Shown piece by piece: positions 15,381-64,000 of a stretch of 64,000 bases of DNA (position 1 is its first letter; each line of letters starts with the position of its first letter). The stretch comes from Eledone cirrhosa (taxonomy: Eukaryota). The stretch lies in the NCBI GenBank assembly GCA_964016885.1, contig OZ024740.1, forward strand, positions 250,480,001-250,544,000, in the 5' to 3' direction. The translations under genes were made by a program, and so were the position numbers. The notes under the pieces are model-generated. The model saw only the letters and a program-made list of their open reading frames with translations. It had not been told where the DNA came from and searched no databases.

Positions 15381-15464
<84 letters not shown>

Positions 15465-15496
15465 ATAAGTAAAAGCGAAGTAGTTTCAAGTCCTTT

Positions 15497-30008: not shown

Positions 30009-30049
<41 letters not shown>

Positions 30050-30059
30050 GTAGTATTAA

Positions 30060-30192
30060 TAATAACAATAATAATAATTGTTTCTACGTTAGGCACAAGG
30101 CCAGCAATTACCCAGTGTATTACTGGTACTTTATTTTATCGACCCCGTAAGGATGAAAGGCAAAGTTAACCTCGGCGGGATTTGAACTCAGA
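30060..30192 (-). mobile_element. SINE family 1, 5'-truncated, at the end of the LINE array
   Basis: Core plus (ATT)n tail; the head is replaced by the tail of LINE copy A. Confidence 0.8.
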
Positions 30193-30194
30193 AT

Positions 30195-33100
30195 GGCAAC
30201 AATAATGATTTCATTTATTAGCCACAAGGACGGCGTGTAGGGGACAATACAAAGACAGGGACAGTGGGGGTTTACAATAAGGTCGAGTAAAAGTGCACAA
30301 TGGCAACAATAATTTAACAATGAAGATATAAAAATATAAAATAAACTATGCATAAATATAACAAAATAAATTCCCCTATAGGGGGTGGACGACCCAGGGG
30401 TGACTCAGGTACCCCACCAATCCTGAACCACCCTGCGCTTCTAGGGCACCCAGGGAGAGCACCCCTCTCCGCAAGTTAGCTAGCCTATAAGCGCATGATC
30501 AGAGTAGGCCCATTCACACGGGCCATTCTCACCACATTCATCCACCTTTTAGCAAATGTACTGGGGGGGGGGGAGCACTTCTCTCTCCACCCTCACCTTC
30601 TTTTCCAGGTGAAACTTGAAGAAGTTGATGAGGGGCTGGCCGAAGAGAAAAGTGTCTGTCTTCAGTCCTTTTAATCTGGTCACTATATAACCTCTTTCGC
30701 AACGGCCACCAGACAGAGGAAAATTGCCTGCTCTTCCTGACCTAAGGAAGGCGGCGGGTCAATCTTCACAATGGACTCGGCTGATAGCCGGATTCGTTCC
30801 ACACGCGACAGTAGCTGTTCGACATAACTCCACAAGTCAGTAATGCACGGACATTGGACAAGTGCATGCAGAACGGTTTCGTCGCTCTGTGCGCATCTTG
30901 GGCAGGTCCGTCTGATAGCACTTCCGTGCCTGTAGAGTTTATCCCGAACCGGCAGTTCCCCCCGGTAGCACTGACAAGCGAGGGATTTCTGGAAATTGTC
31001 CATCGTCGCCGGCTCGAAAGTCCTCCGGTACAGACTGGTCAGTTGGACTTCGTCGAGGCCCAAGAAGTTGATGAGGGATTGGCCGAAAAGAAAAGTGTTT
31101 GTATTCAATCCTTTCAATCTGGTCCACCATATAATCTCTTTCGTAACTGCCACCAGACAGGAGAAAATTGCCTGCCCTTCCTGGCCAAATGAAAGCGGCG
31201 GGTCGATCTTCACTACGGATCCGCTCTACACGCGACAATAGCTGTTCGACATAACTCCACAAGTCTGACAGCACTTCCGTACTTGTAGGGTTTATCCCGA
31301 ACCGGCAGTGCCCCCCGGTAGCATTGCCAAGCGAGGAATTTCTGTAAATTGTCCATCGTCCCCGGCTCGAAAGTCCTCCGGTTATGACTGGTCAGTTCGA
31401 CTTCGTCGAGGCCCAAAGCTTCTCCGAACGCGTCATCGCACTTGCCCACCACTAATCCTCTATAGAACTCGAGAGTGGAAGTTCCACTAATCGCATTGCC
31501 CGCTTGGTAGAGGGAAGTGAGTTCCTGGCAACATTCCAGGTGCCAGTCACCCAGTCTCGTCTATTCTTTACCCAGGACTGCAGCTCAGTCAAAGAAACGA
31601 GCTGCTGAAAGGCCCGTCTGATAAACGGCGACCATACCTGTTCACCGTTTAGGCAGAATATCTGGAGATGTCGCAGCCTCAGCGCATGTCTGCGCATCAT
31701 TAGCCACGGCATGCTCACCCCTCCGCGTAGAGAGAGCTGGCAGCAGTAGTAGATGACGGACGCGATGTACGCATTCGCCACCTCCGCGCGACCTTTCAGT
31801 GATAGTTTCCTCCCAGCCCATTTTAGGGTGAGACTGGCTACTCTGCTCGTTACCTCGTCCCAATTCTTTTCCACCTGGAGGTCTGGTCCGAACCAAACCC
31901 CGAGCAACTTTACCGGTCCGTCCGTCCAGCGCCCCACGACTCTGTTGGACAGCATAAGCTTGCCTCTCCAGGTTCCGAGCTGCAAGCCCACCGACTTTTC
32001 CGAGTTAAGCTTGGATCCTGTCAACCTTTCATATTCCTTCAATAAGGTGCCGACCACCTCGATTTCTGAGGTGTCCCACACCATCACGGTGATGTTATCC
32101 GCATAAGCCGACACCGCCTTTCCACGTCCCGGTTCGAGTGGTATGCCCTGCAACAGCTTCAGCTTCCGCAGGCTCGAGAGTCAATACGTACAGAAGGGAA
32201 GAGAGAGGGCACCCTTGACGGACCGATCGGGAGAGCCGAAATGGTTCCGAGAGGTGGCCATTAACCTTGACCACCGAGCGTGTGCCGCTGTGCATTGCAG
32301 CGATCCAGCTTCTGAAGACAGGGCCGAAGCCAGCTGCTTTGAGGACAAACTCCAGATACCAATGGTCGACCCTATCGAATGATTTCGATTGATCTAAATT
32401 GATCAGTGCCCCAACGAAGCCAGGTTTACACCCTACCTTCTCTATGATGTATCGCATGAGGTGGAGATTGTCGAGTATGGACCTGGCTGGGATTGCACAA
32501 GTTTGCGCCTCCCCAACCAAATCCTCGACGACAAGCACCAATCTCTTTGCTAACACCTTGGCCAAAATCTTAAACTCTGTGTTGAGCAGAGTTATGGGCC
32601 TGAAGTTGTCTAATGTATCCCTCTTGTTCTCATCTTTCCTTATCACCTGCTCACAGAACTGTGAATACTCCCATTCTGCTGCCAGTTGCAGTAGAGTGCT
32701 TCGAGGAGATCGGAGAACAAGTCTGGCACATTTACGTAAAGCTCATAGGGCAGGCCATCCAAACCGGGTGACTTGCGCCTCGTGCAACCGACAAGGGCGT
32801 CCTGAATTTCGGCTGAAGTAATCGGCCTTTCGCAGCGCTCAGCGTCGACCGTCGAGATTCGCGGCAAGCCGTCAAGGTAGGGACTGAAATCCGCTACTCT
32901 CTCTGACTGGCCACTCCCCCTGAACAACCGAGCAAAGTGCTGGCAAAAGGCCTCACACATCCGCTTGGAATCGCTTATCTCGTCTACGCCTCGGTCCGCC
33001 AAATGCCGAAATGTGGATTTATTACCACGCCGTGCCTCCGTCACGCGGGCCCATCGAACAGCTTTAGTTCCCTCGTTTCTCAGCGCACGCGCCTTAGCTC

Positions 33101-34221
33101 TGACAATGCAACCTTTGTGTTTCGCATTGAAGAAATAGTCTAATGCCATTCTCGCCGCTAGCACCTCTGTTGCAATGCCACTACAAATAGCCTCGTCTAA
33201 CTTATCTACCAGCTCCCCCTCCCTTCTATTTTTCTCTAACGCTAGTTCTTTGCTGAACTCTATCGATGTTACTCTAATCTCTCTTTTGTGAGCCCCACCA
33301 TCTGTTGTTGATGATCCCCCCTGACAAATTTTGCTTAACTAAATTGTTGACTCGGTCCCTGTAAGCCTTACGTGCCGGAAATGACATGTTCAGCTTCCAG
33401 TAACCCGGTCCCAACCTACGCGTTTTATCTAGGTCGACTCAACAGATCACAAATTTGTGATCTGAATAGGTGACCGTTTTAAAAATTGGGCAGCCTACAC
33501 CATTTCTATCTATTTTCCTAATAAAGATCCTGTCTACATACGATCTAGATGACTCTATGCGGCTGGTCTACGCCCAAACTGGCGCATTGGGGAAATCTTT
33601 CGATACCTGTCAGACAGTTGGAACTGGCTGCTTAGGTGTTTGAGACTTTTGTACCCTCCGCTCCTATCAGCTACTCCCACACAATCCCAGCGTGCGTCTA
33701 AGATGCCATTCCAGTCCCCCGCTAAAAGTAGAAGACGAGACGTACCCAGAAAGCTTTCCAGGCGCCTAAAGTCCAGTCGTCCGGCCCCAGTAGGGGCGTA
33801 GACGGCCAGCAGTCTAAAGGCACCACCTTCGCTACTGCTCACATCCAGGACCACCAACTTACTGTCCGGGTCCCGGAAGATCGACCTTACCTCGAGATCC
33901 AAACCTTTCCTAAACAGCACTGCCACCCCACCTCCCATTCCCGGGCTGCTAACAGATGCGAAGATCTGATAGTCGTCGAAATTGGGGGCTAGTGCGCGCA
34001 TGTCGGAAATCCTGGTCTCGCTGACGGTAATCACATCCATTTCCAGAGACCCGAGGTTATTTAGCAGGCGACCCTGCTTCCAGCGTGACCCCAGGCCGCG
34101 ATATTTAAACTTCCTACTCTTAATATGGCCATGTTGGCAAGCTAAAATAGAGAGGGAAGGTTTACTTACTCCCAAGGCTGTTGTGCAGGTAGGGTGGTTC
34201 GACCTACATGGTTGGGAACCC

Positions 34222-34222
<1 letters not shown>
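30195..34222 (-). mobile_element. L1/Tx1-clade LINE copy A (ORF1 lost; ORF2 pseudogene with a duplicated 3' segment)
   Basis: APE motifs VSETRI, GGGVAVL, VYAP, AGDWN; RT motifs KSPGLDG, NFRPITLLN, RQGCPLS, AYAD; C-terminal CPRC..ETVLHALVQC; AATAAA then ATT tail. Confidence 0.92.

Positions 34223-34259
<37 letters not shown>
34223..34259. repeat. (AAT)n junction between LINE copies A and B
   Basis: Seen directly. Confidence 0.95.
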
Positions 34260-34260
<1 letters not shown>

Positions 34261-37200
34261 CTTTCTTTATTAACCACAAGGGTTTACATAAAGTAGACAT
34301 TAAGGACAGTACAGGACAATACAGGACGGTACAAATGGGCATTTCTGCGTGTCAAAAAAACAGAGGATGTACTAAAAAAATAACAATGAAAAATTCCCCA
34401 ATAGGGGGGAGACTTCCGAGGGACATTTGTGGAGAAAGGCCATTAAAAGGCCACAGTGAACCTGACCACCAAGGCAAGTGCCCTCTCCCAGTTTTCCACC
34501 TTTAATTTACAGACAGATACTCAGAGTAGGCCTATTCACACGGGCCATACTTGCTTCTCTCACCCATCTTTCAACAAAATGCTGGGAAGAGAGCACTTCC
34601 CTCTCTACCCTGATTTTCCTTTTCAAATGAAATTTGAAAAAGTCAATCAGAGCATCACCGAAGAGGTGAGTGCTCGTCTTCAGCCCTTTCAAACGTGTCC
34701 ACCATACTATCTCTTTCGCCATGGCCACCAGACAGATAAAAACTGCCTGCCCTTCCCGACTAAAGGAAGGGGGCGGGGCAATCCTCACGATGGACTCAGC
34801 TGATAGCTGGATCCGTCCTACACGTGACAGCAGGTGTTCGAAATAAACCCACAAGTCAGCAATGCTCGGACACTGTACAAGTGCGTTCAGGACGGTTTCG
34901 TCGCCCTGCACGCATCTCGGACATGCCCGGCTGACGGCACCTCCATGCCTGTAGAGTTTATCCCGAACTGGCAAAGCTCCACGGTAGCACAGCCAGGCCA
35001 GGGATTTCTGGAAGTTGTCCATAGGCCCCGGCCCGAAAGTCCTTCCGAAGAGATTGGCTAGTTGATTTTCGTTGACGCCTAGAGTTTCTCCAAGTACTTC
35101 GTCGCTCTTCCCCTCCACTAATCCTCTATAGAACGACAAGGTGGAGTTTCCACCGATCACATTGCCCGATTGGTCGAGGGCTGTGAGCGCCTGAAGACAT
35201 TCCAGTCTCCAAGCGCTCCCTCTCGGTCTTCGCTTGACCCAGGACTGCAGCTCCGTCAAGGAGACGAGCTGGGGAAATACGTGTCTAGCAAACGGCGACC
35301 ACACCTGATCACCGTCGAGGAAGAGGTGGAGATGTCGTAGCCTGAGCGCGTGTCTGCTCATCATCAGCCACGCCATGCCCAGCCCTCCACGTAGCGGGTG
35401 TTGACAGCAGATGGACCGCCTGACATATCGGAGCGCGTCCCTTCCACAAGAAGCGAAAGAGCAAACGCTCCAGCGCAGTCAGGCTGGGCTTAGGACAAGG
35501 TATGACGGTCAGGCGGTAGTAGATGATGGACGCGATGTACGCGTTAGCCACCTCCGCTCGACCTTTCAGGGATAGCTTCCTCTCGGCCCATTTCTGGGTG
35601 AGATAAACCACCCTGCTCGTCACCTCGTCCCAGTTTTTGTCCGTCTGGAGGTCTGGACCGAACCAGACCCCTAGCAATTTAACCGGTCCGTCCGTCCAGC
35701 GCCCGACGACGCTGTTGGACGGCATGGACCTGCCTCTTCAGGTGCCGAGTGCAGGCCCACTGACTTTTCCTGGTTGATCATTGCTCTTGTCACCGCTTCG
35801 TCTTCTCTTAGTGTAGTGCCGATCGCCTCGATGTGTTTGGCGTTCGACACCACTACGGTGACATCGTCGGCATATGCTGACACGGATCTTCCGCATCCTA
35901 GTTCGCGCGGGACCCCCCTCAACGTCTCCAATTTGTGCAGTAATGGCTCGAGAGTCAATACGTACAATAGGGACGAGAGGGGACATCCTTGGCGGACCGA
36001 GCGCATGATGTTGAACGGTTCCGAAAGGTGACCGTTCACGTAAAGTTAATAGGGCAGACCATCCAAACCAGGCGATTTACCCCTTGTGCAACCAGTCATT
36101 GCCTCCCGGAGTTCAGCGGTTGTTATCGGCTTTTCGCAAAGCTCCGCCTCAGTGGCCGAGAGCCGCGGCAGTCCGTCGAGGTAGACACTAAAGTCCATCC
36201 CTCAATCCGGCCCGCCACTGCCCCCGAACAGTTGAGCGAAGTGTCGCTGAAAAGCTTCACACATTTGCCCGGGATCGAGTAGCATGCGCTCGTCGTGGTC
36301 CACCAAAGACCGGATCGTGGCTTTGTTGCCACGACGCGCCTCAGCCACTCGGGCCCATTGAACGGCTTTCGTCCCCTCGTGTCTGAGAGCACGCACCCTA
36401 GATCTGACAACGCAGCCTTCGTGCTTTGCATTGAAGAATTGGTCAAGGGCCAATTTCGCCGCAAGCACGTCGCTAATCCGGTCTCTGTAGGCCTTGCGCG
36501 CTGGTAAGGACGCGTTTAGCTTCCAGTAGCCGGGTCCTCGTCTATGAAGCCTATCTAAGTCAAGCACACAGATCACGAATTTGTGGTCCGTGTAGCTGAC
36601 TATCTTGAATTGTGGACAGCCTATGCTAGACCTATCTATTTCCCTACAAAATACTCTATCTAGATATGATCTGGATGACCCTATGCGATTTGTGCAAGTC
36701 CACATTGGTACATTCGGGAAATCCATTTGGTACCTGTCAGACAGTTCAAAACGCCTGAGAAGGTTGGTGAGACTCTTGCACCCTCCTTCCCTCTCCACTA
36801 ATCCCACACAATCCCAGCGTGCATCTAAGATCCCGTTCCAGTCGCCCACTAACACTAAAGAGCGGGACGTTCCAAGAAAGGTCTCCAGACGCCGGAAGAA
36901 ATCAGGCCGCACTGCTCCTGTCGGGGCATAGACGGTCACTAACCTGAAAGCTTGCCCGTCTCCGCTGGTCACGTCCAGCACCACCAACTTACCCTCTGGG
37001 TCTATAAGATGGCCCGTATGGCAAGATCCAAACCTCTCCGGAAAAGCACAGTAACTCCTCCCCCCGATCCAGGACGGCTGTGAGATGCGTACACATCGTA
37101 GCCGCCGAAGATCGTTGCGAATGCCCGTGGTTCGGAGATTCTGGTCTCGCTGATGGCCACTACATCTATGTTTAGTGACCTGAGGTCGTTGAACAGGTGG

Positions 37201-39506
37201 CCCTGCTTCCATGACGACCCCAACCCACGCGCATTTATGCTGCCTATTCTGAGTGAGGTCATGTTGAAAAGGAGTGGAAAAGATGGGAAAGACCACTTAC
37301 CTTACTTCTCGTAGAGGAAGGACGGTTTTTCCATCCTTTTCACTGCTTGTGGCCTCCTCAGGAAGGATGTCCTTATAAATCCTCCTGGAGAGTGCTTGTC
37401 GGAAGTCTCCGATGTCTTTAGGGAATTTTTGTTTTAGTGTCACGTACGTTTTCTGTGTGATGCGAGTGATTTGTATGTGTGGAGGTGGTGTGAATTTTTG
37501 GGTTGTTGTATAGTCTTTTTCTGTGATGCTGGTGTTGTGTTGGATGTAGTGTAATAATTGCTTGTTGTTAAAATTTAATGCTGTGTAGTGTGTATCGTTT
37601 TGGTTGTTTTGTTTTGATTGCGTTTGTTGTGGGTTTGTTTCTGTTTCGCATTTTGGTGACTTTTGTGGTGTAGGTGATGGTGGTGTTGGGGTTAATGATG
37701 GTGATGGTGTTGGTGTTTGGGTTGATGGGGTTGGTGATGCTGGTGTGGATGGTGGCATATCTGTCCTAACTTTTTTGTTTGTTAATTTATTTGTTTCCCT
37801 CTGTATTTTGTTTTTGGAGGGGGAAGGAAGAGAATTTTTTCTTTCTTGGTTTCTTTTTTTTTCCTGATACCGTTTCCCACTCCTCGTCGTCACAATCTGT
37901 CTCCAGTTGTGATAGGCCGGGGAGTGGAAAATCCTCCACAGGCGTTAGTTTTGGTTGTGGCGTGGTGGATGGTGTAGGCGCTGGTGCTAGTTCTGAAGCG
38001 TTGGTTGGTGGTGGTGTTGGTTTTACTGGTGGTGGTGGTGTTGGTTTTGCTACTGTTGCTGGGGTTGTTGCTGTTATAGTTGCTTCTGTTGTTGCTGCTA
38101 CAGTTGTTGCTGCCATCTCTGCTACTGGTGGTGTTGATGGTTGTGTCACTGGGGTGGGTAGGAGAGGTGGCCTCAACCTTTTAGCCTGAGGGCAGAAAGC
38201 CCTTAGGTGGGTTCCTTCACCACAAACGACACACCTAGGCCTTCTGCCCTCGACAATTACGGTGAGGTGGCTGCCGTCAGTGAGGTCTATTACCTCTGGG
38301 ATCTCCTCAATGCTTTTTTGGTCCGCTTGGACCAGAAGCTCCATCCCAGATCCGGACCAGTTCTCCTGCTTTTCTTTTGCTATTGCTATTATCTTTGTGC
38401 TGGCTTCCATGCCGGCGAGGACGGCCGCTATTAGCCAGGGAATTTCGATGGCCGGTGGAACGTGGGTCACCCTGATCTTTACGAGTCTCTGGCCACAACA
38501 GCTTGGGACGAGTGTGAAGTCGTCACTTCTTAATGGGGCCATGGAGTGTTCTCTAACCTCCTCTGCTGTTTCAAAGAACACATCCACGGTTCCATACTTC
38601 TGCCCACGTCTGATGTGGGTTTTTCTTGCCCACACATGTCCCAAAGCTTTTTGTATTTGGGACTCGGATGCCCGTTCCACTCGGCGCGATTTTACATTTA
38701 TTGTTCGATACGACACGGTGCATAGGCGCCGATGCTCCATTTTATTAGGTGGGGGAGGGGGGGGGGAGGAGACTGACCCTGTACCCATCTTTCTTTACCA
38801 TTTGTTTGGCATTTTCTAATTCCTCCTGAGTTACCGTAAATGGTTCGCACTGTTTTGCTACTCTGGCAAAACTCAGGGTGGTTTTTTAATGTCATTGTTG
38901 TTGTTGTTGCTATCGTTATTTTTGTTATTATTAATTTTAGTTTCAGTTGTGGTGGTGGTGACGTCAGTGAAGTTCGGTTTGGGAGAGTTCATTTTGGTTG
39001 AAAATATTTCGACATCACGAGTTGATTTTTTTTTTTGTTTCTGTTGTCGCGGTGGTGGTGGGGGTGGTGGTTGTCGCGGTGGTGGTGGTGGTGGTGGTGG
39101 TGGTGGAGGCTTTAACACCTGCAGTCATTGGTAATGGCGGGAAATGAATGTCTGCCTGAGACAAATTTAAAATATTGCTAGTGCTTAAATTGTGTGTGTT
39201 GGCAGACGTAGTACCATTTACAATGGTGGTGTCGGTGTGAGGTGTTAATTTGTGAGGAAGGCTTTCAGCTGCTTGGTGCAGTGGTGAATTAGCCATTTCC
39301 TTCCAAAGAAATTTTTTGATAATCATAAAAGTTTAAATTTTGGGCACAAGGCCCCAATCTTTTTGGGTGTCCTTTTCGGAAAAACAATGTATGTGGGCTT
39401 ATATATAGTTAACAATAAAAATTTTCCATAAATGGCAATTTTTAACAAACGGAAATAACAAACCTTTGCGGAGCTCACGATGATACGATTTACTACGTAG
39501 GTCGCC
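34260..39506 (-). mobile_element. L1/Tx1-clade LINE copy B (5' region, ORF1, ORF2 with internal deletions)
   Basis: ORF1 with RRM-like region and CVVCGEGTHLRAFC knuckle; ORF2 starts MTSLRIGSINARGL at 37262 with APE, RT and CCHC motifs. Confidence 0.93.
37297..38788 (-). pseudogene. LINE ORF1 (RRM-like, CCHC knuckle, Pro/Thr linker, conserved C-terminal block), one frameshift at about 37860
   Basis: ORF track 37787-38788 plus 37297-37893; homologous to ORF1 of copies C, D and E. Confidence 0.85.
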
Positions 39507-39557
<51 letters not shown>

Positions 39558-39563
39558 AATAAT
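39507..39563. repeat. (AAT)n junction between LINE copies B and C
   Basis: Seen directly. Confidence 0.95.
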
Positions 39564-42500
39564 GTTTTCTTTATTAACCACAAGGGTTTACATAAAGTAG
39601 ACATTAAGGACAGTACAGGACGGTACAAATGGGCATTTCTGCGTGTAAAAAAACAGAGGATGTAATAAAGTAACAAAGAAAAATTCCGCAATAGGGGGAG
39701 ACTTCCGAGGGACATTTGTGGAGAAAGCCCAGTAAAAGGCCACAGTGACCCTGACCACCAAGGCAAGTGCCCTCTCCCAGTTTTCCACCTTTAATTTACA
39801 GATATATACTCAGAGTAGGCCCATTCACACGGGCCATTCTTGCTTCTCTCACCCATCTTTCAACAAAATGCTGGGAAGAGAGCACTTCCCTCTCTACTCT
39901 GCTTTTCCTTTTCAAATGAAATTTGAAAAAGTCAATCAGGGCATCACCGAAGAGGTAAGTGCTCGTCTTCAGCCCTTTCAAACGTGTCCACCATACTATC
40001 TCTTTCGCCATGGCCAACAGACAGATCACATTGCCCGATTGGTCGAGGGCTGTGAGCGCCTGAAGACATTCCAGTCTCCAAGCGCTCCCTCTCGGTCTTC
40101 GCTTGAACCAGGACTGCAGCTCCGTCAAGGAGACGAGCTGGGGAAATACGTGTCTAGCAAACGGCGACCACACCTGATCACCGTCGAGGAAGAGGTAGAG
40201 ATGTCGTAGCCTGAGCGCGTGTCTGCTCATCATCAGCCACGCCATGCCCAGCCCTCCACGTAACGGGTGTTGACAACAGATGGACCGCCTGACCATCGGA
40301 GCGCGTCCCTTCCACAAAAAGCGAAAGAGCAAACGCTCCAGCGCAGTCAGGCGAGGCTTAGGACAAGGTACGAGGGTCAGGCGGTAGCAGATGACAAACG
40401 CGATGTACGCGTTAGCCACCGCCGCTCGACCTTTCAGGGATAGTTTCCTCTCGGCCAATTTCTGGGTGAGAGAAGCCAACCTGCTCGTCACCTCGTCCCA
40501 GTTTATGTCCGTCTGGAGGTCCGGACCGAACCAGACCCCTAGCAATTTAACCGGTCCGTCTGTCCAGCGTCCGACGACGCTGTTGGACGGCATGGACCTG
40601 CCTCTCCAGGTGCCGAGCTGCAGACCCACTGACTTTTCCTGGTTGATCATTGCTCCTGTCACCGCTTCGTATTCTCTTAGTGTAGTGCCGATCGCCTCGG
40701 TGTGTTTGGCGTTCGACACCACTACGGTGGCATCGTCCGCATATGCTGACACGGATCTTCCGCATCCTAGTTCGCGCGGGACCCCCCTCAACGTCTCCAG
40801 TTTGTGCAGTAATGACTCGAGAGTCAATACGTACAATAGGGACGAGAGGGGACATCCTTGGCGGACCGAGCGCATGATGTTGAACGGTACCGACAGGTGA
40901 CTGTTCACTCTCACCACAGAGCAGATGTCGCTGTGCATGGCAGCGATCCAGCCTCTGAAGACGGGCCCAAAGCCAGCCGCCCCCAGGACTGCCGCTAGGT
41001 AACGATGGTCGACCCTATCGAAAGCTTTCGACTGATCTAAATTGATCAAGGACCCACCCGTGCCAGGTTCCCTAGCTACCCTCTCTACGATGTATCGCAT
41101 GAGGTGGAGGTTGTCGTGGATGGATCTGTCGGGAATGGCGCATGTCTGCGCCTCTCCCACCAGAACACCAACGACAAGCGCCAACCTCTTTGCTAGCACC
41201 TTGGCCAAAATCTTGAATTCTGTGTTTAGCAGAGTTATGGGCCGGAAATTATCTATGTTATCCCCCTTGTTCGGATCCTTTCTCAGCAGTGCCACCGCTC
41301 CTCGGCTCACAGAACTGGGAATTCTCCCGTTCTGTTGTCAGTTGCAGTAGACGTCCGCCAAGAGGCCTCCGAACAAGTCTGGCATCTGTACGTAAAGTTC
41401 ATAGGGCAGACCATCCAAACCAGGCGATTTACCCCTTGTGCAGCCAGTCATTGCCTCCCTTACTTCAGCGGCTGCTATCGGCTTTTCGGAACACTCCGCC
41501 TCAGTAGCCGAGAGCCGCGGCAGTCCGTCGAGGTGGACACTAAAGTCCATCCCTCGACCCGGCCCGCGCTGCCCCGGAACAGCTGAGCGAAGTGTCGCTG
41601 AAAAGCTTCGCACATTTGCCCGGGATCGCGTAGCATGCGCCCGTCGTGGTCCACCAAAGACCGGATCGTGGCTTTGTTGCCACGACGCGCCTCCGCCACT
41701 CGGGCCCATTGAACGGCTTTCGTCCCCTCGTGTCTGAGAGCATGCACCCTAGCTCTGACAACGCAGCTTTCGTGCTTTCTATTGAAGAATTGGTCAAGGG
41801 CCAATTTCGCCGCAAGCACGTCGGTCTCTGTAGGCCTTTGCTAAGCGCCTCGTCTAATTTTCTAACTAATTCTCCCTCTGCTCTATTTTTCTCTAATGCT
41901 AAAGCCTTACTAAACCTAATGGATTCTATTCTAATCGCTCTTTTCAGAGCAAACCACCACTTGTAGTTGACGATGGCCCCCGTCAACGCCCGCTTAACTA
42001 GTTCGCTAATCCGGTCTCTGTAGCCCTTGCACGCTGGTATGGACGCGTTTAGCTTCCAGTAGCCGGCTCCTCGTTTATGAAGCCTATCTAAGTCAAGCAC
42101 ACACATCACGAATTTGTGGTGCGTGTAGTTGACTATCTTGAATTGTGGACAGCCTATGCTAGACCTATCTATTTCCCTACAAAATACTCTATCTAGATAT
42201 GATCTGGATGACCCTATGCGGTTTGTCCAAGTCCACATTGGCACGTTCAGGAAATCCAATCGCTACCTGTCAGACAGTTCAAAACGCCTGAGCTGGTTGG
42301 TGAGGCTCTTGCACCCTCCACCCCTATCCGCTAATCCCACACAGTCCCAGCGTGCATCTAAGATCCCGTTCCAGTCGCCCACTAACACCAAAGAGCGGGA
42401 CATTCCAAGAAAGGTCTCCAGACGCCGGAAGAAATCAGGCCGCCCTGCTCCTGTCGGAGCATAGATGGCCACTAGCCTGAAAGCTTGCCCGTCTCCGCTG

Positions 42501-45109
42501 GTCACGTCCAGCACCACCAACTTACCCTCTGGATCCAGGAAGATGGCCCGTATGGCGAGATCCAAACCTCTCCGAAAAAGCACAGCAACTCCTCCCCCCG
42601 ATCCAGGACGGCTGGGAGATGCGTACACATCGTAGCCGCCGAAGATCGGTGCGAATGCCCGTGCTTCGGAGATTCTGGTCTCGCTGATGGCCACTACATC
42701 TATGTTTAGTGACCTGAGGTCGTTGAGCAGGTGACCCTGCTTCCATGACGACCCCAAGCCACGCGCATTTATGCTACCTATTCTGAGTGAGGTCATGTTT
42801 AAAATAGAGTGGAAAAGATGGGAAAGACCACTTACCGTACTTTTCGTAGAGGAGGGATGGTTTTTCCAACCCTTTTCACTTGATCGTCTGGTGAAGGGAC
42901 TGTTGAATCGTCCCTTCGGCTGGTCGTCGGCTCTTCTATGAGTATGTCCGAATATACTCTTCGGTTTAGTGTCCCTCCTAGGTATCTGAAATCACCAACT
43001 GCGTTGGGGAATTTCGTTTTAATGTTTGTGTATTGTTTCTGTGCTATTTTTAGCAGTCTTATGTTAGTTGGCGTTTTGATTGGTGCTGGTATTATGTAGT
43101 CGTGTTGTGAAATGTCTGTGTATTCAATTATGTAAGTCATTAGTTTCTTGATGTGTGTATTTATTGCCGTGCATTTGTTTTTCTGAGGGTGGGGTGTGGT
43201 TCTGCTATTTTCTTGTCGTTGTTGCTGGGTGTGTGTGTTTTGTTGTTGTGTTTGCGATGTTGGTGCTTGTGGTGGTGGTGTTGAAAGTGTTGTTGGCGGT
43301 GGGGTTGTCGCCGGTGGTGATGGTGGTGCTAGTGTGGGTGGTGATGGTGTTGGTGGTGTTGCTGCTGTGAGTCTCTTTGCAGTAGCCTTTACCCTTTTTT
43401 CATTTCTTTCCTCCCTTTTCAAAGGCGACGATGCGCTGCTTCTGCGTTTGTGCCTTCTTACAACCTTTTGCCATCCCTCTACAACCTCACACTCCATGTC
43501 TGATTCTGTGAGCTCGGGGAGGGGTACCAGCTCCACTTTTCATTCGTTGTTGTTGGTGATGTTTGCACTGGAGTCTCTGTTGCAGCTGCATTTGGTATTG
43601 CTGTTGTTGTTGTTAATACTTCCACTGCTGCTGCTGTTTTTGATTTCCGTGGCGTGGGTATGGGTGCCACGGACCTATTGTTCCTGGTTGCCGCTTGTCC
43701 TATTGCTGGTAGCCGTGGAGCCGGTTTCGGAAGGAGGGGGGTTTTCTCCTTTCTCAGGGTCTTCTCGTTGTAGAAGGCCCTGAGGTGAGTCTTCGATCCA
43801 CAGCGAAAGCATTTCGGGCGTTTGCCCTCAACACTTATGGGCAGTTGAGTGCCGTTATCGAAGTCTATCACATCCGGGATAGCTTCGATGCACTCCTGGT
43901 TGGTTTGGATTAACATCTCAATGGAGGTGCCGACCCAATCTTCTCTTACTTTTTTCTGTACTTGCAGTACAGTTGTTTTGTCCTCGATTCCGACGAGGAC
44001 AGACGCGGCCAGCCAAGAAGGGGCCATCCCGGGGGGGGGGGTTAGTTTGACCCTCACAATTTTTTGCCCGCAGTAGGAGGGCACCAACACCATTTCCTCG
44101 CTCCTTAGGGTCACTAAGGATTGAGCCTTTGCCTCCTAGAGTGTGGCAAAAAGTACGTCTACGGTGGCATATTTCTTGCCTCGGGTGATGTGCGTTTTCC
44201 GCTGCCACACAGACCCCAAGGCGTTTTGTATTTGAGCCTCTGTGGCTTGTTCAACCCTACAGGATTTTGTACTTACTGTACGGTACGTGACCGTACAGTG
44301 CTGTTGGGTTTCGAAAAATGTTTCCGCTGCCTTGCAGATTGCTCGGTGTCCTGTTTTTGTCACCATCTTCTTCGCTTCCTCTAATTCCTCATTTGTTATG
44401 AGGATGGTTTCCAGGTTCTTTGCGATACCTGCAAATGTGTTGGTTTTTCTTTGTTGCTGTTGTTGTTGTTGTTGTCGTCAGAGCTGCTGTTACTTTTGTT
44501 GTTGCTGCAGGTACTACGACTACTGCCGCCGCCGCTGTTGCTGTGGTTGTTGTTGTTGTTGCTGCTGCTAATGCTGTTGTTGTTTATGCTGCTGCTGATG
44601 CTGTTGCGGCTGCTACTGTTGTTTTCATTGTCACTATTTCTGTTGTTATTACGGCTGCTACTGCTATTCAGACGAATGAAATGGGTTTTCGTATTTCCCG
44701 CACACCTGTTTCGTCGTTGTCGTCGTCGTCGTGGAGAAATCTTGCACGCTTTGCACGAGACTTTTCTTTTCTGTCGTCGCTTGCGAAAGAGAAGGGAGGG
44801 AGAGAGACAATCTTCTCTCTGCTGTAGTGACGATTGAGGAAGAAGAAGACGGAATGAGTGGGAGTGACCTATGAAAATTCTTTGTCGTAGCCATGTTGTT
44901 TTTTTGTTTAAAATAAATATTAGGCACAAAACCCCAATAAGCAGTTATTTAACCCCGAAGGGCCAAATAACGGGCAGAAAGACCCCTCTCACGAGGAGGA
45001 GGGTGTTTTTGTCTACAAGTTGGTTGAAGTTTTAAACAATTTACAATTGTTATAGCGGTCAAAATTTACAATACCTTACAGAGCCGAGCCTCCGTCAACC
45101 ATAGCATTC
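39564..45109 (-). mobile_element. L1/Tx1-clade LINE copy C (chimeric: D-like ORF1, B-like ORF2 and 3' UTR)
   Basis: ORF2 starts at 42796; 504-aa RT stretch 39796-41310; ORF1 knuckle CFRCGSKTHLRAF; 3' UTR nearly identical to copy B. Confidence 0.93.
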
Positions 45110-45139
45110 AATAATAATAATAATAATAATAATAATAAT
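45110..45139. repeat. (AAT)n junction between LINE copies C and D
   Basis: Seen directly. Confidence 0.95.
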
Positions 45140-48100
45140 TTCTTTATTGGCCACAAGGGCTGACATCAAGAAAAACATGACGGAACAGGACGGTACGATG
45201 TGTGTTTTGTGCGTGTAAATATTTTTATTATTTATATAAGAAAAGAAAAAAGACATAAAACATATATATATATAAACAATAAAATGAAAATTGAAACAAT
45301 GAAAAATTCCCCAATAGGGGGGGAAACCTCCGAGGGTTTCCCGTGGCGTAAACCACACAAAAGACAACGGCCACCCTGACTACCAGGGCAAGCGCCCTCT
45401 CTCAATTTTTCCATCTCTCAAACTACAGACGTATATTCAGAGTGGTCCCGTTCACTCGGACCATTCTCGCTACATTCACCCACCTTTCAACAAACTTGCT
45501 AGAAGGCAGCACTTGCCTCTCCACCCTGATTTTCCTCTTCAAGTAAAACTTGAAAAAGTTAATCAGGGATTCGCCGAAGAGGAAAGTGTTTGTCTTTAAT
45601 CCTTTTAACCTTGTCCACCACACAATCTCTTTCGCCATGGCCACCAGGCAGATGAAAACCGCCTGCCCTTCCTCCTGAAGGGAAGACGGCGAGACCATCT
45701 GCACAATGGACTCAGTCGACAACCGGATCACTCCCACACGTGACAGCAACTGTTCGACATAGCTCCACAAGTCAGCAATGCTCGGGCACTGAACGAGTGC
45801 GTGCACAACGGTTTCGTCGCTATGCGCGCATCTCGGACAGGCTCGGCTGACGGCACTTCCGTGCCTGTAGAGCTTATCTCGAACCGGCAGCGCTCCCCGG
45901 TAGCACTGCCAGGCCAGGGATTTTGGGAAGTTATCCATAGGCCCCGGGAGAGAGCAAGCAGCTGATCTTCTTCGATGCCCAGGATCTCTCCGAGAACGTC
46001 GTCGCTCTTCCCCATCCACTAGTCCTCTATAGAACGCCGAGGTGGATGTTCCACCGAAACTGGTGCCCAACTGGGAGAGGGCAGTGAGCGCCTGGAGACA
46101 TTCCAGTTTCCAAGCGCTATCCCTCGGACTTTTTCTGACCCAGGACTGCAGCTCCGTCAAGGAGACGAGCTGTGGGAAAATGTGCCTGGCGAACGGCGAC
46201 CACACCCGTTCACCATCAAGGAAGCACCAGAGATGTTGCAGCCTCAGCGCATGTTTGCGCATCATCAGCCATGGCATGCCCACTCCTCCACGCAACGGGT
46301 GTTGACAGCAGATGGATCTTCTGACCATGGGAGCGCGTCCCTTCCACAAAAAGCGGAAGAAGAGGCGCTCCATTTTGGTGAGAGTTGGGCTGGAGCAAGG
46401 GACGACGGTGAGGCGGTAGCAGATGACGGATGCGATGTACGCATTCGCCACCTCCACCCGGCCTTTCAGGGACAGCTTCCTCTCAGCCCATTTCTGGGTG
46501 AGGGAGGCCACCCTGCTCGTCACCTCGTTCCAGTTTTTCTCCATCTGGAGGTCCGGTCCGAACCAGACCCCGAGCAATGTAACCGGTCCGTCCGTCTAAC
46601 GCCCCACGACGCTGTCGGACGGCATGGACTTGCCTCTACAGGTGCCTAGCTGCAAGCCCACCGACTTTTCCTAGTTTATCTTTGCTCCTGTCACCATTTC
46701 GTATTCCTTGAGAGCGATGCCGAGCATCTGGACGTGTCTGGTGCTCGACACCACCACGGTGACGTCGTCCGCGTAAGCCGACTCGGATTTACCGCATCCT
46801 AGTTCGCGTGGGACGCCCCTCATCGCCCCCAGTTTGTGCAGTAACGGCTCGAGTGCCAATACGTACAAGAGGGACGAGAGGGGACAACCCTGGCGGACTG
46901 AGCGCATGATGCTGAACGGCTGCGACAGGTGACCGTTCACCCTCACAACTGAGCAGATGTCGCTGTACATTGCTGCGATCCAACGCCTGAAAACGGGCCC
47001 GAAACCGGCTGCCTCGAGGACCGCCGCCAGGTACCGTTGGTCGACCCTATCGAATGCTTTGGATTGATCCAAGTTGATCAGGGCCCCACCCTTGCCAGGT
47101 TCCTTAACCACCCTCTCTATGATGTATCGCATGAGGTGGAGGTTGTCGTGTATGGATCTGTCCGGGATGGCGCATGTCTGCGCCTCTCCCACCAGACTCT
47201 TGACGATAAGCGCAAACCTCGTTGCTAACACCATGGTCAAAATCTTGAACTCTGCGTTTAGCAGAGTTATGGGCTTGAAATTATCAATAACATCCCCCTT
47301 GTTCGGGTCTTTTCCCAGCAGCGCCACTGCTCCCCGGCTCACAAAACTGGGAATGCTCGCGCCTCTGCCACCCGAGCCCATTGGACGGCTTTTGTCCCCT
47401 CGTGTTTCAGAGCACGCGCTCTAGCTCTGACAACGCAGCCTTCGTGTTTTGCGTTGAAGAATTGGTCGAGTGCCAATCTCGCCGCAAGCACGTCGGTTGC
47501 GATGCCTATCCTAAACGCCTCTTCTAGCTTTCTGACTAGCTCTCCCTCTACTCTATTTTCCTCTATCAGTACTCCTTTGCTAAACCTAATTGACTCTACT
47601 TTAATTGTCCTTTTCAGGGCGAACCATCACCTGTTGTTGACGACCGCTCCCGTCAACGCCCGCTTAACTAATACACTAATCCGGTCTCTGTAGGCCTTGC
47701 GCGCCGGGAAAGACGCGTTCAGCTTCCAGTAACCAGGCCCTTGTCTATGAAGTCTGTCTATGTCGATCTCACAGATCACAAATTTGTGGTCTGTGTAGTC
47801 GACTATTTTAAATTGTGGACAACTTATACTAGCCTTATCTAGTTCCCTGCAGAATACCCTATCTAGATACGATCTGGATGACCCGATGCGGTTTGTCCAT
47901 GTCCACATTGGCACATTCGGGTGATCCAGTCGATACCTGTCAGACAGTTCAAAACGTCTGAGCAGGTTGGTGAGGCTCTTGCACCCTCCTCCCCTATCCA
48001 CTAGCCCCACACGATCCCAGCGTGCATCCAAGATACCGTTCCAGTCGCCCACTAACACTAAAGAGCGGGACGTTCCAAGAAAGGTCTCTAGACGTCTGAA

Positions 48101-50757
48101 GAAATCTGGCCGTCCTGCCCCTGTTGGGGCGTAGACGGCTACTAGCCTGAAAGCATTGCCTTCGCTGCCGGTCACGTCCAGCACCACCGACTTACCTTCT
48201 GGGTCCAGGAAGATGGCCCGTATCGCGAGATCCAAGCCTCTCCGAAAAAGGACGGCAACCCCTCCCCCACGATCCTGGACAGCTGGGCGATGCGTATACA
48301 TCGTAGCCGCCGAAGATCGGTGCGAAGGCCCGTGCTCGGAGGATCTGGTTTCACTGATTGCCACCACATCTATGTTTAGTGACCTGAGGTCATTGAGCAG
48401 GTGACCCTGCTTCCAAGATGACCCCAGGCCACGTGCATTTATACTGCCTATTCTGAGTACAGCCATGTTGGATGAGAAACGAGGCAAATGAGAAAGGGTC
48501 ACTTACCTTGTTCGTGTGGTGAAGGGACAGTAGAACCGTCCCTTTCGCTGGTCATGGGTGTTTCCAAGAGGATGTCAGTGTATATCCTCTTGTTAACCGT
48601 CCCTCTGAAGTCTCCAACCGCGTTGGGGAATTTTTGTTTTAAAAGTGTGTACTGTTCTATTGATATTTCAATGATGCTTATGTTTGTCGGGAGAGTTCTT
48701 GGTGTTGGTGGGGTGTAGTAGTTTTTTTCCGTGATGTCTGTGCGCTGCTTTATATATTTTATGAGTTCTTTTTTTGCTATGTTTATGGCTGTGTACTTTT
48801 TGGGGGGAGGGGTGATTTTGTTGCCGTTTTCTTCTTGTTGCTGTTTGAAGTGTGTGTCTTGTGTTTGCGTTGTTGGTGTTTGTGGTGGTGTTGCTGCAAG
48901 TTTCCTTGCTGCCTTTACCCCTCTTTGTATGCCTTCGCTTTTGTTTTTTGTTTTTTTGTGGCACACTGTTTGCCACGTCACGCCCGCCTCAAATTACATG
49001 TCGGATTCTGTAGCGTCTGGGAGGGGTATGTGCTCCACGGCTGTTGGTGGTGGTAGTGGAGCCCTCTTCGGCAATGTTGTTGCTGGTGTAGCTATTTCAA
49101 ATGAAGCTATTGGTGTTGCCGCTACTGATGATGCTGCTTTAGTTATCCGTGGCCTTGGTACGGGTGCTACGGACGTTGCCCTCCTACTCACAGTGGAAGG
49201 GGCTTCTTCGTTTGTTGTCTGTCCTGCTCTTGGTAGCAGCCGACCAGGTATTGGAAGGAGAGGGGCCCTCTTCGGTGTCTTCTGCGGGCAAAAGGCCCTG
49301 AGGTGACCTTTCGACCCACAGAGATAACATTTTGGCCGTCTTCCTTCTACACTTATAGGGAGTTGGAGTCCTTCCTCAAAGTCTATGATATCGGGGATAG
49401 CCTCGATACATTCCTGGTCAGTTTGTATAAGCATTTGCATGCCTATACCTGACCAGTTCTCTCTCCCTATTTTTTCTTCTTGCAGCATGGTCGCCCTGTT
49501 CTCAATTCCAGCAAGGACAGACGTGGCCAGCCAAGGTTTGGGCACGTCGGGTGGGACCTGGGTCACTTTGACCCTCACAATTTTCTGCCCGCAGTAGGAG
49601 GGCACCAAGACTAACACCTCACTCTTTAGGGTTTCCAAAGAGTGAGACTTTGTTTCCTGGGGGGTGGCGAAAAGTACGTCTACTGTGGCGTACTTTCTGC
49701 CTCGGGTGATGTAGGTTTTGCGTGCCCAGACGCACCCCAAAGCCTTTTGGATTTGAGCCTCCGTGGCTCTCTCCACTCGATGTGAGATTTTGCTTACGGT
49801 GCGGTAATTCACCGTTCGTAGCTGCTGGTCCTTGAAAAAATCGGGTGGAGGTTTCAGGGAAACTCTATTTGCGCTTCTTGTCACCATGGCCCTTGAGACT
49901 GCCACCTCCTCCTCTGTGACTAACACTGTCTCGATATTTCGGGCGACACCTGCAAAAGAAGAGGTCCCTTTTTCAGCAGCACCACTATTGCTGCCGCTAC
50001 TGGTCTTACTGGTGGTGCTGAGGTCGCTATTACAAGTATCGGTGTCATTGTTGTTCTTTTCGCTGGTACAGTTGTTGGTGTTGTTTTCGTTGATACTGTT
50101 GCTGCTGTTACTGTTATTGTGGCTGTTGTTATTATTGTTGTTTTTGTTGATACTGTTCCTACTATTATTGTTGTTGTGGCTGTTGTTATTGTCATTGTTA
50201 TTGTCGTTCTCGACCTTACCGCTGTTATTTTTGTTATTGTCGTTCTCGACCTTACCGCTGTTATTTTTGTTATTGTCGTTCTCGACCTTACCGCTGTTAT
50301 TTTTGTTATTGTCGTTCTCGACCTTACCGCTGTTATTTTTGGTGTTGTTGTTGGTGATGTTGTTGGTGTTATTGTTGGTGTTGTTTGTGTTAGAAATATT
50401 TGTTAATTTTAAATCTGTAACAATCTTTTTTTCCTTTGTAATATTTTCGTTTATATTTACCTCCGCTGGAACGCTGTCTTGCTGATAAAGTCTCCCTCTC
50501 TCTGTGTTGTCTGACAGCGCTCTCTCTCTTTTTTGTGTTATCCATGTTGAAATTTTTCAAAAAATATTTTTACACAAATACGAATACGACATCCCGTAAA
50601 GGGGTGCCGTATTATTTACTAGTGAACCCCTGTATTAGGTGGGTCACTTCTAAACTTTTATCAAATTTAAAACTTGAATAAAAGGTTTAGAACGGTTGAA
50701 AAAGAGGTAAAACGTTGAAAAAGACTGGAGGCGATAAGAAGCGTGGCTTCACCGACC
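45140..50757 (-). mobile_element. L1/Tx1-clade LINE copy D
   Basis: ORF1 with CYLCGSKGHLRAFC knuckle; ORF2 starts MAVLRIGSINARGL at 48466 with APE, RT (AYADD) and CPRC..H..C motifs; frameshifts and deletions. Confidence 0.93.
50195..50340. repeat. 33-bp minisatellite, about 4 copies, in the 5' part of copy D
   Basis: ttgttattgtcgttctcgaccttaccgctgttattt repeated. Confidence 0.92.
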
Positions 50758-50789
<32 letters not shown>

Positions 50790-55789: not shown

Positions 55790-55822
<33 letters not shown>

Positions 55823-59430: not shown

Positions 59431-59471
59431 CCGTTGCCATAATGACCACCATCATAACCGTCGCTATAAAT

Positions 59472-59630
59472 ATTGGTAGAGCGTCAGACTCCATGCTTTG
59501 CAGCATAGAGTTATGGCCCTTTACGTTCTGAGTTCAAAACCCGCCGAGGTTTACTTTGCCTTTCATCCTTACGGGGTCGATAAAATAAAGCACCAACAAT
59601 GCTGGCCTTGTGCCATACGTAAAAATAATT
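59472..59630 (+). mobile_element. SINE family 1 with degenerate (ATT)n tail
   Basis: Reverse-orientation copy of the same core. Confidence 0.8.
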
Positions 59631-59699
59631 ATTATTATCATTATTACCGTCATAATAATTATTATTTATATTATCATTGTTACAATAACCATTATTGTC

Positions 59700-62600
59700 A
59701 TTATTCCTCATGGTAGTGATCGTAGCATCAGTCAGGCAGAGGCCGTTTCATCTTCTTTTTCATCAAGTGGCAGTCGAGAAGTGGCTGCTGCTGATGCATT
59801 TGGCAAGAACAACGGCAATAACGGAGGTAGCAGCAGCAGCGGCAGCAGTAACAAAAACACCAGTGGCAGCAGTAGCTACAGCGGCAGCAACACCAACAAA
59901 ATCAGCAACAGCACCAAGAACAACACCAACTGCCACAACGATAGCACCAACTGCCACAACGACAACACCAACAACAACAGCAACACCATTACCAACAACA
60001 ACAGCAACACCATTACCAACAACAACAACGACAACAAAGAAAAAATTATTTCGCTGCCGCAGCAGCCATGAACAGGCCATGCTTCGACTTGGACTTGGCA
60101 GACAAGGAGACAAAGTTGACCTAGGCATGGAAGCTCATCAAACAGGAGCAAACCTGTGCCAACTTAACTGTCTCGGCAGAGGCCTTGGAGGCGGTGGGGG
60201 GGGGGGGGAGAACTCTGGTCTTCAGATGCATCTCAGCTAAGAGGAAAAAAGCCAATAACACTCCCCTAGCAGACGTCGAGGCTGCGCTGAGGTGCATCAG
60301 AGGAGATACGGAGTACATAGCGAGGGGTCGACAATACGGCACCAACTCGGTGCTGTTTAAGTCAGAGGCCCTGGCTTTGAAGCACTCGATGACTCCTTGC
60401 AAAACCAGCAAGGTTACTATGTACCCCTCCCACATGAGAAAAAGAACGATTAGAGTCCGCATTCCCAGGATTCCACCAGGACTAGATATGTGGTGGCTCT
60501 TGAGATGCGTGATTGTGGAGGGGACAGATGCCGTCCCAATAGAGGCAACTAGAACAGGTAGAGACGACAGGTCCGGGGTTGATCTGGAGATACTTCTCCA
60601 GATCAAACCTAAAGAACTAAAGACAATCCGGGAGCAGATCCGCCTCCAAAACGGGACGGTTCTACAAGTGATGGCTAAGGGCGGCACTGTTTCAGTTGCG
60701 GCGAAAAAACACACTTGCGAGCCTTCTGCCCTCAGCAATTGAAAAATGCAAGGGGTCAACTGAAACATCGCAAAACTACTGAACCTCATAACACGAAATA
60801 AGGAAATAGAGAAAGAGGGGGGGGGGGGCGTTTAGCACCTGCACCTTCAAAATGCACAAAAACTTTTGCTGGTGCGGATGACATTAGACAATTATAAAAC
60901 AATTAGGGAGAGCTTTCCCAATGACGTGGGAATACCCAGCGTAAAAGCCTGAAGTAGGCTTTTAAAGGGGTTCCCAATGAAAACCCCACCAACTATGGAG
61001 GTCGAACCACCCGACCTTCACAACAGCCCGGGAGGTAAGTAAACCTTTCCTCTCTCTTAGGAAGTTTAAATGTTTGAGGCCTGGGATCATCCTGGAAGCA
61101 GGGTCACCTGCTCAACGACCTCAGGTCTCTGGAAATGGATGTAATTGCCGTCAGCGAGACGAGGATTTCCGACACGCGCACACTATCCCCCATTTTCGAC
61201 GACTATCAGATATTCGCATCTGTTAGTCGGCCGTGAATGAGAGTGTGTGTGTGTGTGGGGGGGGGGGGCAGTGCTGTTTAGGAAAGGCCTGGATCTCGAG
61301 GAAAGGTCGATCTTTCGGCACCTGGACGGAAGGTAGTGCCTTTAGACTAGTGGCTTTAGACCGGGTCAAGGACGGCCGGACTTTTTTAGACGCCTGGAAG
61401 CCTTTCTCGGTACATCTCGCCCTTTACTGTTAGCGGGGGACTAGAATGGCATCTTAGACGCACGCTGGGACTGTGTGGGAGTATCCGATAGGAGCGGGGG
61501 TGCAAAAGCCTCAAGTACCTGATCAGCCAGTTCCAACTGTCTGACAGGTACCAACTAGATTTCCCTAATGCACCAGTGTGGACCTGGACCAACCGCATAG
61601 GGTCATCTAGATCATATATGGACAGGATATTCATTAGGAAAATAAACAGAAATAGTGTAAGCTGTGCACGTTTAAAACGGTCACTTATTCAGATCACAAG
61701 TTTGTGATCTGTATGGTCAACCTAGATAAGACGCGCAGGTTAGGACCTGGTTACTGGAAGCAGAACATATCAAGCTGTTCGATGGGCCCGCGTGACAGAG
61801 AGGCAGCGTGGTAATAAGACCACAATTCGGTATTTCATGGACCGAAACGGACACGAGCTGAGCGATTCCAGGCGGATGTGTGAGGCCTTTCGCCAGCAAT
61901 TTTTTCGGTTGTTCGGGGTAAGTGATGGGTCAGAGACGGTGACGGACTTCGGTCCCTACCTCGATGGCTTGCCGCAACTCTCGACGACTGACGCTGAGCG
62001 CTGCGAGGGGCCGATAACTTCAGCCGAAATTCACGATGCCCTTGCCGGCAGCACGAGGTTTGGGTGGTCTGCCCTACGAGCTTATGTAAATATGCCAGAC
62101 TTGTTCTCCAATCTCCTCGAAGCGATCTACTGAAACTGGCAGCAGAACGGGAGTATTCCCAGTTCTGTGAGCCGGGCGTAGTGACGCTGATAAGGAAAGA
62201 CGAGAACAAGAGGGACATATTAGATAATTTCAGGCCAACACAGATTAATAATTTCAAATTAGATAATTTCTCTGCTCAACACATTAAGATTTTGGTCAAG
62301 CTGTTAGCGAAGAGGTTGGTGCTTGTCGTCAGGGATTTGGTTGGGGAGGCGCAAACGCGCGCAATGCTAACCAGGTCCATACACGACAACCTCCACAAGG
62401 ACGCGGAATGGTTGTGTCGGCTTATGCGGACGATATCACCGTGATGGTGTGGGACACCTCGGAAATCGAGGTCGTCGGCAACTTGGAGGAATATGAAAGG
62501 TTGACGGGAGCAAAACCTAACCTGGAAAAGTCAGTGGGCTTGCAACTCGGCACCTGGAGAGGCAAGTCCATTCTGTCCAACAGCATCGTTGGGCGTTGGA

Positions 62601-63995: not shown

Positions 63996-64000
63996 TTTTT

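Follow-up and report, generated by a model that had tools for sequence, protein, structure and literature searches.

A chimeric LINE subfamily in Eledone cirrhosa with its breakpoint at a 5′ splice site motif, possibly made by splicing between elements

An array of related LINEs

The window analysed here, a 64,000-nt stretch of the Eledone cirrhosa genome, carries on its minus strand four LINEs, D, C, B and A, which are all related and are arranged head to tail (Table 1). Every LINE copy ends in AATAAA and a (TTA)n-like tail, and at this one locus a (TTA)n run immediately precedes all four copies of the array, while copy E, on the plus strand, is preceded by an ATT-rich run.

Table 1. Features of the LINE array, of the join in copy C and of the neighbouring splice-like signals
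Feature	Position	Strand	Comment
LINE copy D	45110..50760	-	stand-in for the ORF1 parent
LINE copy C, chimeric subfamily	39505..45110	-	starts right behind the (TTA)n tail of D
LINE copy B	34220..39505	-	stand-in for the ORF2 parent
LINE copy A	30040..34220	-	5′-truncated 52 nt before its GTAAGT (34169), directly behind the tail of B
LINE copy E	59620..64000	+	A-related outgroup; 5′ end approximate
C ORF1 region	42832..44944	-	RRM-like part and CCHC knuckle; related to the ORF1 of D
C ORF2, APE endonuclease and reverse transcriptase	39796..42796	-	Pfam PF03372, PF00078
C AATAAA and (TTA)n tail	39507..39575	-	
Segment X1, 41 nt, D-like ORF1 end, ending CAAG	42879..42919	-	34/41 identical to D 48547-48507
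Chimeric join	42878..42879	-	last D-like base 42879, first B-like base 42878
Segment X2, 43 nt, B-like ORF1 end	42836..42878	-	37/43 identical to B 37342-37301
C remaining GTAAGT (ACG/GTAAGT)	42830..42835	-	contains the ORF1 stop TAA
Inter-ORF spacer of C	42797..42829	-	B-type, 76% pyrimidine
D donor AAG/GTAAGT, ORF1 end	48501..48509	-	joint best of 315 GT sites in D
B donor AAG/GTAAGT, ORF1 end	37295..37303	-	best of 267 GT sites in B
B putative acceptor CAG/T	37342..37345	-	weak context

The copies have the layout of L1/Tx1-type elements, that is, an ORF2 with an APE endonuclease, a reverse transcriptase (RT) and a C-terminal zinc finger, and a separate ORF1. The zinc finger (zf-RVT, PF13966) was detected in the ORF2 of D, and the nearest solved structures to ORF2 were those of L1 ORF2p, which ranked above R2. 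In the ORF1 of D, the zf-CCHC match was weak (E 0.0041, below Pfam's cut-off), and RRM/CCHC look-alikes were found for P0002, a homologue of the ORF1 protein. From the domain order and the target preference, these LINEs are probably Tx1 elements. The ORF1 of C lies in three frame pieces (44944-44396, 44135-43479 and 43539-42832, minus strand), and its ORF2 is interrupted by stops, frameshifts and a 420-nt loss.

Homologues of ORF1 came from Octopus sinensis, O. bimaculoides, O. vulgaris and Argonauta hians, at 29-37% identity (named records among ten looked up). Word-indexed protein searches found no homologue of the C tail among 29 candidates and none of the D ORF1 core among 1032, and a profile of the ORF1 tail found five of 8000 sequences, four of which were already in the query. 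The endonuclease had no match among 331 metagenome loci; the RT matched 11 of 198, all of them distant (24-38%), and the three that were inspected were uninformative. There were no matches among 62 viral loci or 59 prokaryote genome loci.

Several smaller rearrangements were seen within the copies. The 3′ part of ORF2 in copy A contains an internal duplication (30619-31416, minus strand; 30619-30838 against 31062-31265, and 30910-31063 against 31263-31416), and the Asn-rich N-terminal region of the D ORF1 holds a 36-nt tandem repeat (4.4 copies, 97%, 50195-50352, minus strand). At 41840-41824 (minus strand), C has, in place of what D and A have, a short repeat of sequence that lies about 180 nt further upstream, and a 182-nt loss in B covers the same stretch.

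Copy C is a chimera and belongs to a subfamily

Comparison of the copies indicates that C is a real chimera, whose ORF1 groups with D and whose ORF2 groups with B. In 150-nt windows, C is 57-71% identical to B upstream of the join and 91-99% identical downstream (one 13-base window left out), and in the ORF1 core C shares 72.0% identity with D as against 59.4% with B. Informative sites in four-copy comparisons with E as outgroup point in opposite directions on the two sides: the ORF1 core has 39 sites uniting C and D, 17 uniting B and C and 14 uniting B and D, and the corresponding numbers for BC, CD and BD are 20, 2 and 2 in the endonuclease and 39, 6 and 2 in the RT region. The ORF1 tail (9, 7 and 4 sites) is not decisive. 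These opposite groupings support the view, put forward in a preliminary description of the locus, that C combines a D-type ORF1 with a B-type ORF2. The term D-like needs qualification: the ORF1 of C is closer to D than to B, but at 72.0% core identity its parent, here called P, was a relative (sister family) of D, itself unseen. In ORF2, both B and C are 82-88% identical to D.

The preliminary description had also given the letters and positions around the join, and these hold, including the donor G of D at 48506 and the first base of B after its CAG at 37342. The 22 bases before the join agree with D at 20 positions, as claimed, and the right part of C does align with B just after the CAG. 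The last 41-42 nt of ORF1, here called segment X, are homologous and colinear in B and D, and C carries this segment (41-43 nt) twice, the D-like version first and the B-like version second. The first version matches B at 23/42 positions, the second matches D at 24/43, and the two are alike at 22/43. The join is thus 41-42 nt out of register, which rejects a homologous crossover. It aligns exactly with the AAG/GTAAGT of D and the CAG/TG of B, so that the breakpoint lies at the donor and not away from it, as had been proposed. At the join, the stand-in parents D and B have only AG in common. Template switching at a CAAG microhomology, raised earlier as a competing explanation, fails as such, since a switch there would retain the CAG of B, which is absent from C.

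C also has the extra base that had been described after the junction. It lies in a run of G (42872-42870; three G as against two in B), about 8 nt inside the second segment, and it returns the reading to the frame of B, restoring a stop 39 nt before the ORF2 ATG (38 nt in B). ORF1 closes without this base as well, as a D+B join lacking it meets a stop 4 nt earlier. We also observed that C and D are 83% identical in segment X (42919-42879 against 48547-48507), as against 66% in the part of the ORF1 tail that precedes it and 72% in the core; the segment may be constrained or of mixed origin.

The joined form occurs in other organisms. Part of C (42300-44350) was present in 20 of 24 listed runs, under 17 organism labels and with none of the runs recorded as RNA, which says nothing about expression, and four of the runs (X1, X4, X5 and X6) were aligned on C 42350-43600. 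A contig of run X5 (record 23) spans the join over 42770-43158 (389 letters, 19 differences), and a contig of run X6 (record 25) spans it over 42350-43459 (1110 letters, 32 differences), both with no gaps and with the extra base included. In runs X1 and X4, the summed depth, which is not a copy number, reached 153,827 and 206,034, respectively, in the bin of the junction and ranged from about 41,000 to 820,000 over the C-type ORF1, with listed single pieces at 5-26. None of the pieces listed for these two runs bridges the join, and neither a joint or loose end at 42878/42879 nor a P-type or B-type branch was present among the rows listed for the four runs (15 of 170 joints, 20 of 1356 loose ends and 27 of 23162 pieces). 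At position 42869, nearly all of the depth in all four runs has A (minus strand), like B, which makes the T of the window private. One contig of run X4 skips from 42763 to 42889, with both stops exactly where D differs from C; it looks like a D-type copy, although its intervening letters are not given. The presence of the join in contigs from other organisms means that C represents a subfamily and not a local deletion, and a deletion confined to this locus is rejected. Hence, the earlier claim of a new subfamily is borne out by the bridging contigs of X5 and X6 and by the very high summed depth in X1 and X4, and we conclude from these sequences that C is a multi-copy subfamily.

Putative splice signals at the ORF1 end and candidate origins of the join

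The motif GTAAGT closes ORF1 in all five copies, at 48506 in D, 42835 in C, 37300 in B and 34169 in A (minus strand) and at 61035 in E (plus strand), where it reads GAG/GTAAGT, and so parent P likely had it too. Under a donor scoring matrix, this site scores highest of all donors in B and E and ties for the top score in D. Copies A, D and E read it as Gly/Ser-Lys-stop, copies B and C as Arg-stop, which indicates that the letters have outlasted a frame change. Among four distant homologue tails, those of P0009 and P0011 end in GK or GKS, in that of P0002 GK stands seven residues before the end, and that of P0043 has none. The spacer that follows the motif is pyrimidine-rich (71-81%). In A, B, C and D, splicing to an AG 52-59 nt downstream would put ORF1 and ORF2 together in one frame; this AG comes first only in B and C, and as there are several AGs to choose from, the observation carries little weight. 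GTAAGT occurs a second time within the endonuclease region of D, C, B and A (48195, 42525, 36992 and 33862, minus strand; a perfect AAG/GTAAGT in D), and hence the motif can persist through its codons (Gly/Ser-Lys) alone. In total, GTAAGT was seen 11 times in these non-independent copies, where base composition predicts 6.4. The motif at the ORF1 end and the pyrimidine-rich spacer possibly reflect regulated splicing or U1 binding.

The putative acceptor of B is less convincing: its pyrimidine fraction is 0.5, and AG occurs three times in the preceding 30 nt. It is outscored by 53 of the 153 YAG sites of B, and another YAG nearby (37384) scores slightly above it.

We lean towards the reading that the C subfamily was made by RNA splicing between LINEs; the likelihoods that we attach to this reading and to its rivals are judgements, not computed values. 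The transcript would start in P, the sister family of D, and the strong 5′ splice site ending the ORF1 of P would be joined to a cryptic CAG in a B-type parent, Q, 42 nt before the end of the ORF1 of Q. The (TTA)n arrays put elements head to tail, so that the RNA would most simply have arisen by read-through, although trans-splicing would lead to an identical product. Once spliced, the RNA would carry the 5′ region and ORF1 of P, a short tail from Q, and the spacer, ORF2 and 3′ UTR of Q. It would then have been retrotransposed, gained the one base that brings the ORF1 tail back into the frame of Q, and been amplified, the splicing event itself having occurred once. From the present copies, we infer that P had its donor where D has it and Q its CAG where B has it, and likewise the read-through, the splicing and the order in which the join and the extra base arose.

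The main support for splicing comes from an enumeration of breakpoints, in which D and B serve as stand-ins for the parents. The null, built after the feature was seen, consisted of all out-of-register D-B joins with at least 2 shared bases. Between the conserved motif of D and the ORF2 ATG, 19 of 784 such joins fall on the donor and 2 on the donor together with a YAG; the narrowest interval gives 17 and 2 of 394. In these narrow intervals, 2.4-4.3% of joins are on the donor and 0.26-0.5% on the donor and a YAG. A wide interval, the C-terminal third of ORF1, gives 56 and 13 of 22723. The donor overlaps the ORF1 stop, and if selection keeps ORF1 whole, joins would crowd there and these null values would be too low; if the viable interval were some 20 nt, chance would place a join on the donor in roughly 15% of cases, as estimated rather than computed.

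Of the splice-made origin that had been proposed earlier, the chimera, the subfamily and the position of the breakpoint at the donor are supported, and the acceptor in B has its CAG in a weak context. The weak acceptor, the AG shared at the join and the unseen ORF1 parent (72% between C and D) speak against splicing. A truncated Q behind the (TTA)n tail of P would, hypothetically, offer a way round the weak acceptor, as it would place a U-rich, AG-free stretch before the first AG. Such an arrangement is seen in copy A, where a TAG at 34206-34204 is the first AG behind the (TTA)n tail of B and is preceded by a U-rich, AG-free stretch. As a separate observation, this TAG/G (cut at 34204/34203, at the end of the stretch 34220-34204, minus strand) could serve today as the acceptor in a read-through splice from B to A.

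A donor that ends in AG, once spliced to an acceptor, mimics a 2-nt AG microhomology, so that the models cannot be separated by sequence alone. The join could instead be due to a template jump during reverse transcription, in which ORF2p on a B-type RNA stalls near the ORF1 end and moves to P RNA via the AG. We regard this as possible but not likely. The match to the donor would then be due to chance or to selection for a whole ORF1; in a variant, the jump would be onto the free end of the 5′ exon of P after the first splicing step, which needs no acceptor. The AG common to the parents and the weak acceptor are in keeping with such a jump, and the truncation of copy A 52 nt before its donor implies that reverse transcription does end close to this point. 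Two reports name template switching among the routes to chimeras of L1 and Tx1 elements (bioRxiv 10.1101/2025.02.02.635956, PMC4494074). However, few of the enumerated joins fall on the donor, and fewer still on the donor and a YAG, and the parents are 82-88% alike in ORF2, where a switch in register would be easier.

An improbable alternative is a DNA deletion at a microhomology within a tandem array of P and Q, removing the ORF2 of P and most of the ORF1 of Q and leaving a hybrid master that was amplified. Arrays of this kind exist, and deletions without splice-like ends are common in these LINE copies. GT..AG ends are absent from all 35 gap rows between copies, so other deletions are rejected as splice products; many of these rows are redundant, short or misaligned, and they come down to seven distinct losses (105-483 nt, 1-3 shared letters). 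This implies that non-splice joins are the usual rearrangement here. However, the making of C would need a loss of several kb with both ends within windows of about 100 nt, in addition to the same donor coincidence, and it would not have occurred at this locus, since contigs of other organisms hold the join.

It is very improbable that the doubled tail is ancestral or was duplicated within the C lineage, D having lost one segment and B having swapped its ORF1. If a C-like element lost the second segment, AAG would stand at either end of the loss; the 72% identity of C and D in ORF1 fits vertical descent beside an ORF2 at 82-88%, and the homologue P0002 has a tail as long as that of C, with 59 residues from the FP motif to the stop in both. 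However, this distance is 37-43 residues in six of the eight ORF1 tails (B, D, E, P0009, P0011 and P0043), so that a single segment is most likely ancestral, and the C-type tail being the original one and lost from D, a possibility raised in the preliminary description, is unlikely. The two segments of C are also far less alike than the first segment and D. Moreover, the tail of B is colinear with that of D, and its likeness to C begins exactly at the second segment, which one event making C explains and which a swap in B would explain only with a second coincidence. As for P0002 (Octopus sinensis), its tail is 19 residues longer than that of its relative P0043, which is possibly an independent tail addition or an effect of the gene model.

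Least probable of all is a nested insertion of a 5′-truncated B-type copy into P at its ORF1 end, with a transcript from the P promoter ending at the inserted tail: short 5′ microhomology is usual for L1 insertions, and insertion of this kind is a published proposal for ORF1 shuffling (PMC4120745), but D, C, B and A all follow (TTA)n, E follows an ATT-rich run, nothing TTA-like precedes the join, and the donor coincidence remains.

Returning to splicing between elements, a broader version can be offered tentatively. The lineage may keep a functional 5′ splice site where ORF1 ends. With elements stacked head to tail in (TTA)n, this site would make the promoter and ORF1 an exchangeable exon, and recurring splicing between neighbours might then yield new autonomous LINE subfamilies. 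With similar reserve, we suggest that the element could have its own use for the site, in an ORF1-only message, in a 52-59-nt intron fusing ORF1 to ORF2, or in protection against early polyadenylation. C would be one product of such splicing, and the long tail of P0002 might conceivably be another.

Relation to known chimeric retroelements

The closest parallels are SVA_F1, which carries exon 1 of MAST2, and pt_SVA_D6, which carries exon 1 of STK40, both described as splice-made subfamilies (PMC6139936). For pt_SVA_D6, splicing was inferred there from a join at the 3′ end of the exon, and the acceptor could not be reconstructed (PMC6139936). In these subfamilies, as proposed for C, a foreign 5′ part was spliced to an internal acceptor and then amplified. 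C shares with SVA_F1 a 5′ part that ends at a donor of its source, for which D is a stand-in, and a joined form amplified to many copies, as suggested by a depth that gives no copy number. SVA is non-autonomous and its 5′ part is a host exon, unlike the case of C, where both parents are LINEs, the coding ORF1 was exchanged and both ORFs were kept.

A second parallel is an L1PA2 element that gained the RAP1GDS1 promoter by cis splicing and was retrotransposed twice; the authors speculate that chimeras cause the replacement of L1 5′ UTRs (bioRxiv 10.1101/2025.02.02.635956). This case and the other chimeras of mRNA and LINE-1 described there resemble the proposed history of C in that a promoter was gained by cis or trans splicing and the product retrotransposed. 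Unlike C, the RAP1GDS1/L1PA2 chimera has a host-gene donor and two copies only, and its ORF1 was not replaced. The SpIREs of human L1 are spliced within one element, retrotransposed and mostly dead ends (PMC5860796). C differs from these in joining two families and in having amplified; it is also longer here, with its two sides coming from different families.

In the Jockey superfamily, ORF1 shuffling has been attributed to recombination or nested 5′-truncated insertion (PMC4120745), and the histories of ORF1 and ORF2 differ there as they do in C. The letters 'splic' do not occur in the text of that paper. Kibi and Koshi are microsatellite-targeting Tx1 elements (PMC4494074) and, like C, have two ORFs, an APE endonuclease, an RT and simple-repeat insertion; the target here is (TTA)n, and the placement of C in Tx1 is tentative. 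L1-Tx1 is among the active LINEs of Octopus vulgaris in the accessible text of PMC13282606, and 'splic' does not occur in the available text of two octopus repeat papers (PMC13282606, PMC9115989). Read-through between tandem non-LTR elements is reported for the telomeric TART/HeT-A (PMC1636488).

The preliminary description knew of no earlier account, for LINEs, of this route to ORF1 and promoter swapping. Absence of precedent does not hold for promoter swapping, which has precedents in SVA_F1, pt_SVA_D6 and RAP1GDS1/L1PA2, but it does hold, within the literature searched, for the swap of ORF1 between LINE families. A LINE-to-LINE swap of ORF1 by splicing was not found in that literature, whose coverage of subscription papers, Repbase notes and supplements is incomplete. 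LINE families repeatedly replace their promoters and ORF1, by a mechanism about which there is still speculation. If C was splice-made, it is a case of the spliceosome swapping a coding module from one autonomous LINE family into another, with a product that became abundant, unlike SpIREs, which die out. With an exact breakpoint, an abundant family and arrays at hand, this route is testable.

Two further kinds of repeat occur in the window. A second LINE type, with an RT and a C-terminal PDLVV motif, lies directly before D in the same (TTA)n cluster (50840-53913, minus strand), and an inverted second piece of it, 90% alike, is found at 55761-56612 (plus strand); we take this motif to be that of a restriction-like endonuclease and the element to be probably Dong/R4-like. 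A short interspersed repeat, presumably octopus SINE-like, is present in multiple copies (2122-2313, 3716-3820, 15419-15686, 30047-30195, 56939-56992, 58797-58986 and 59468-59646), two of which adjoin the ends of A and E.
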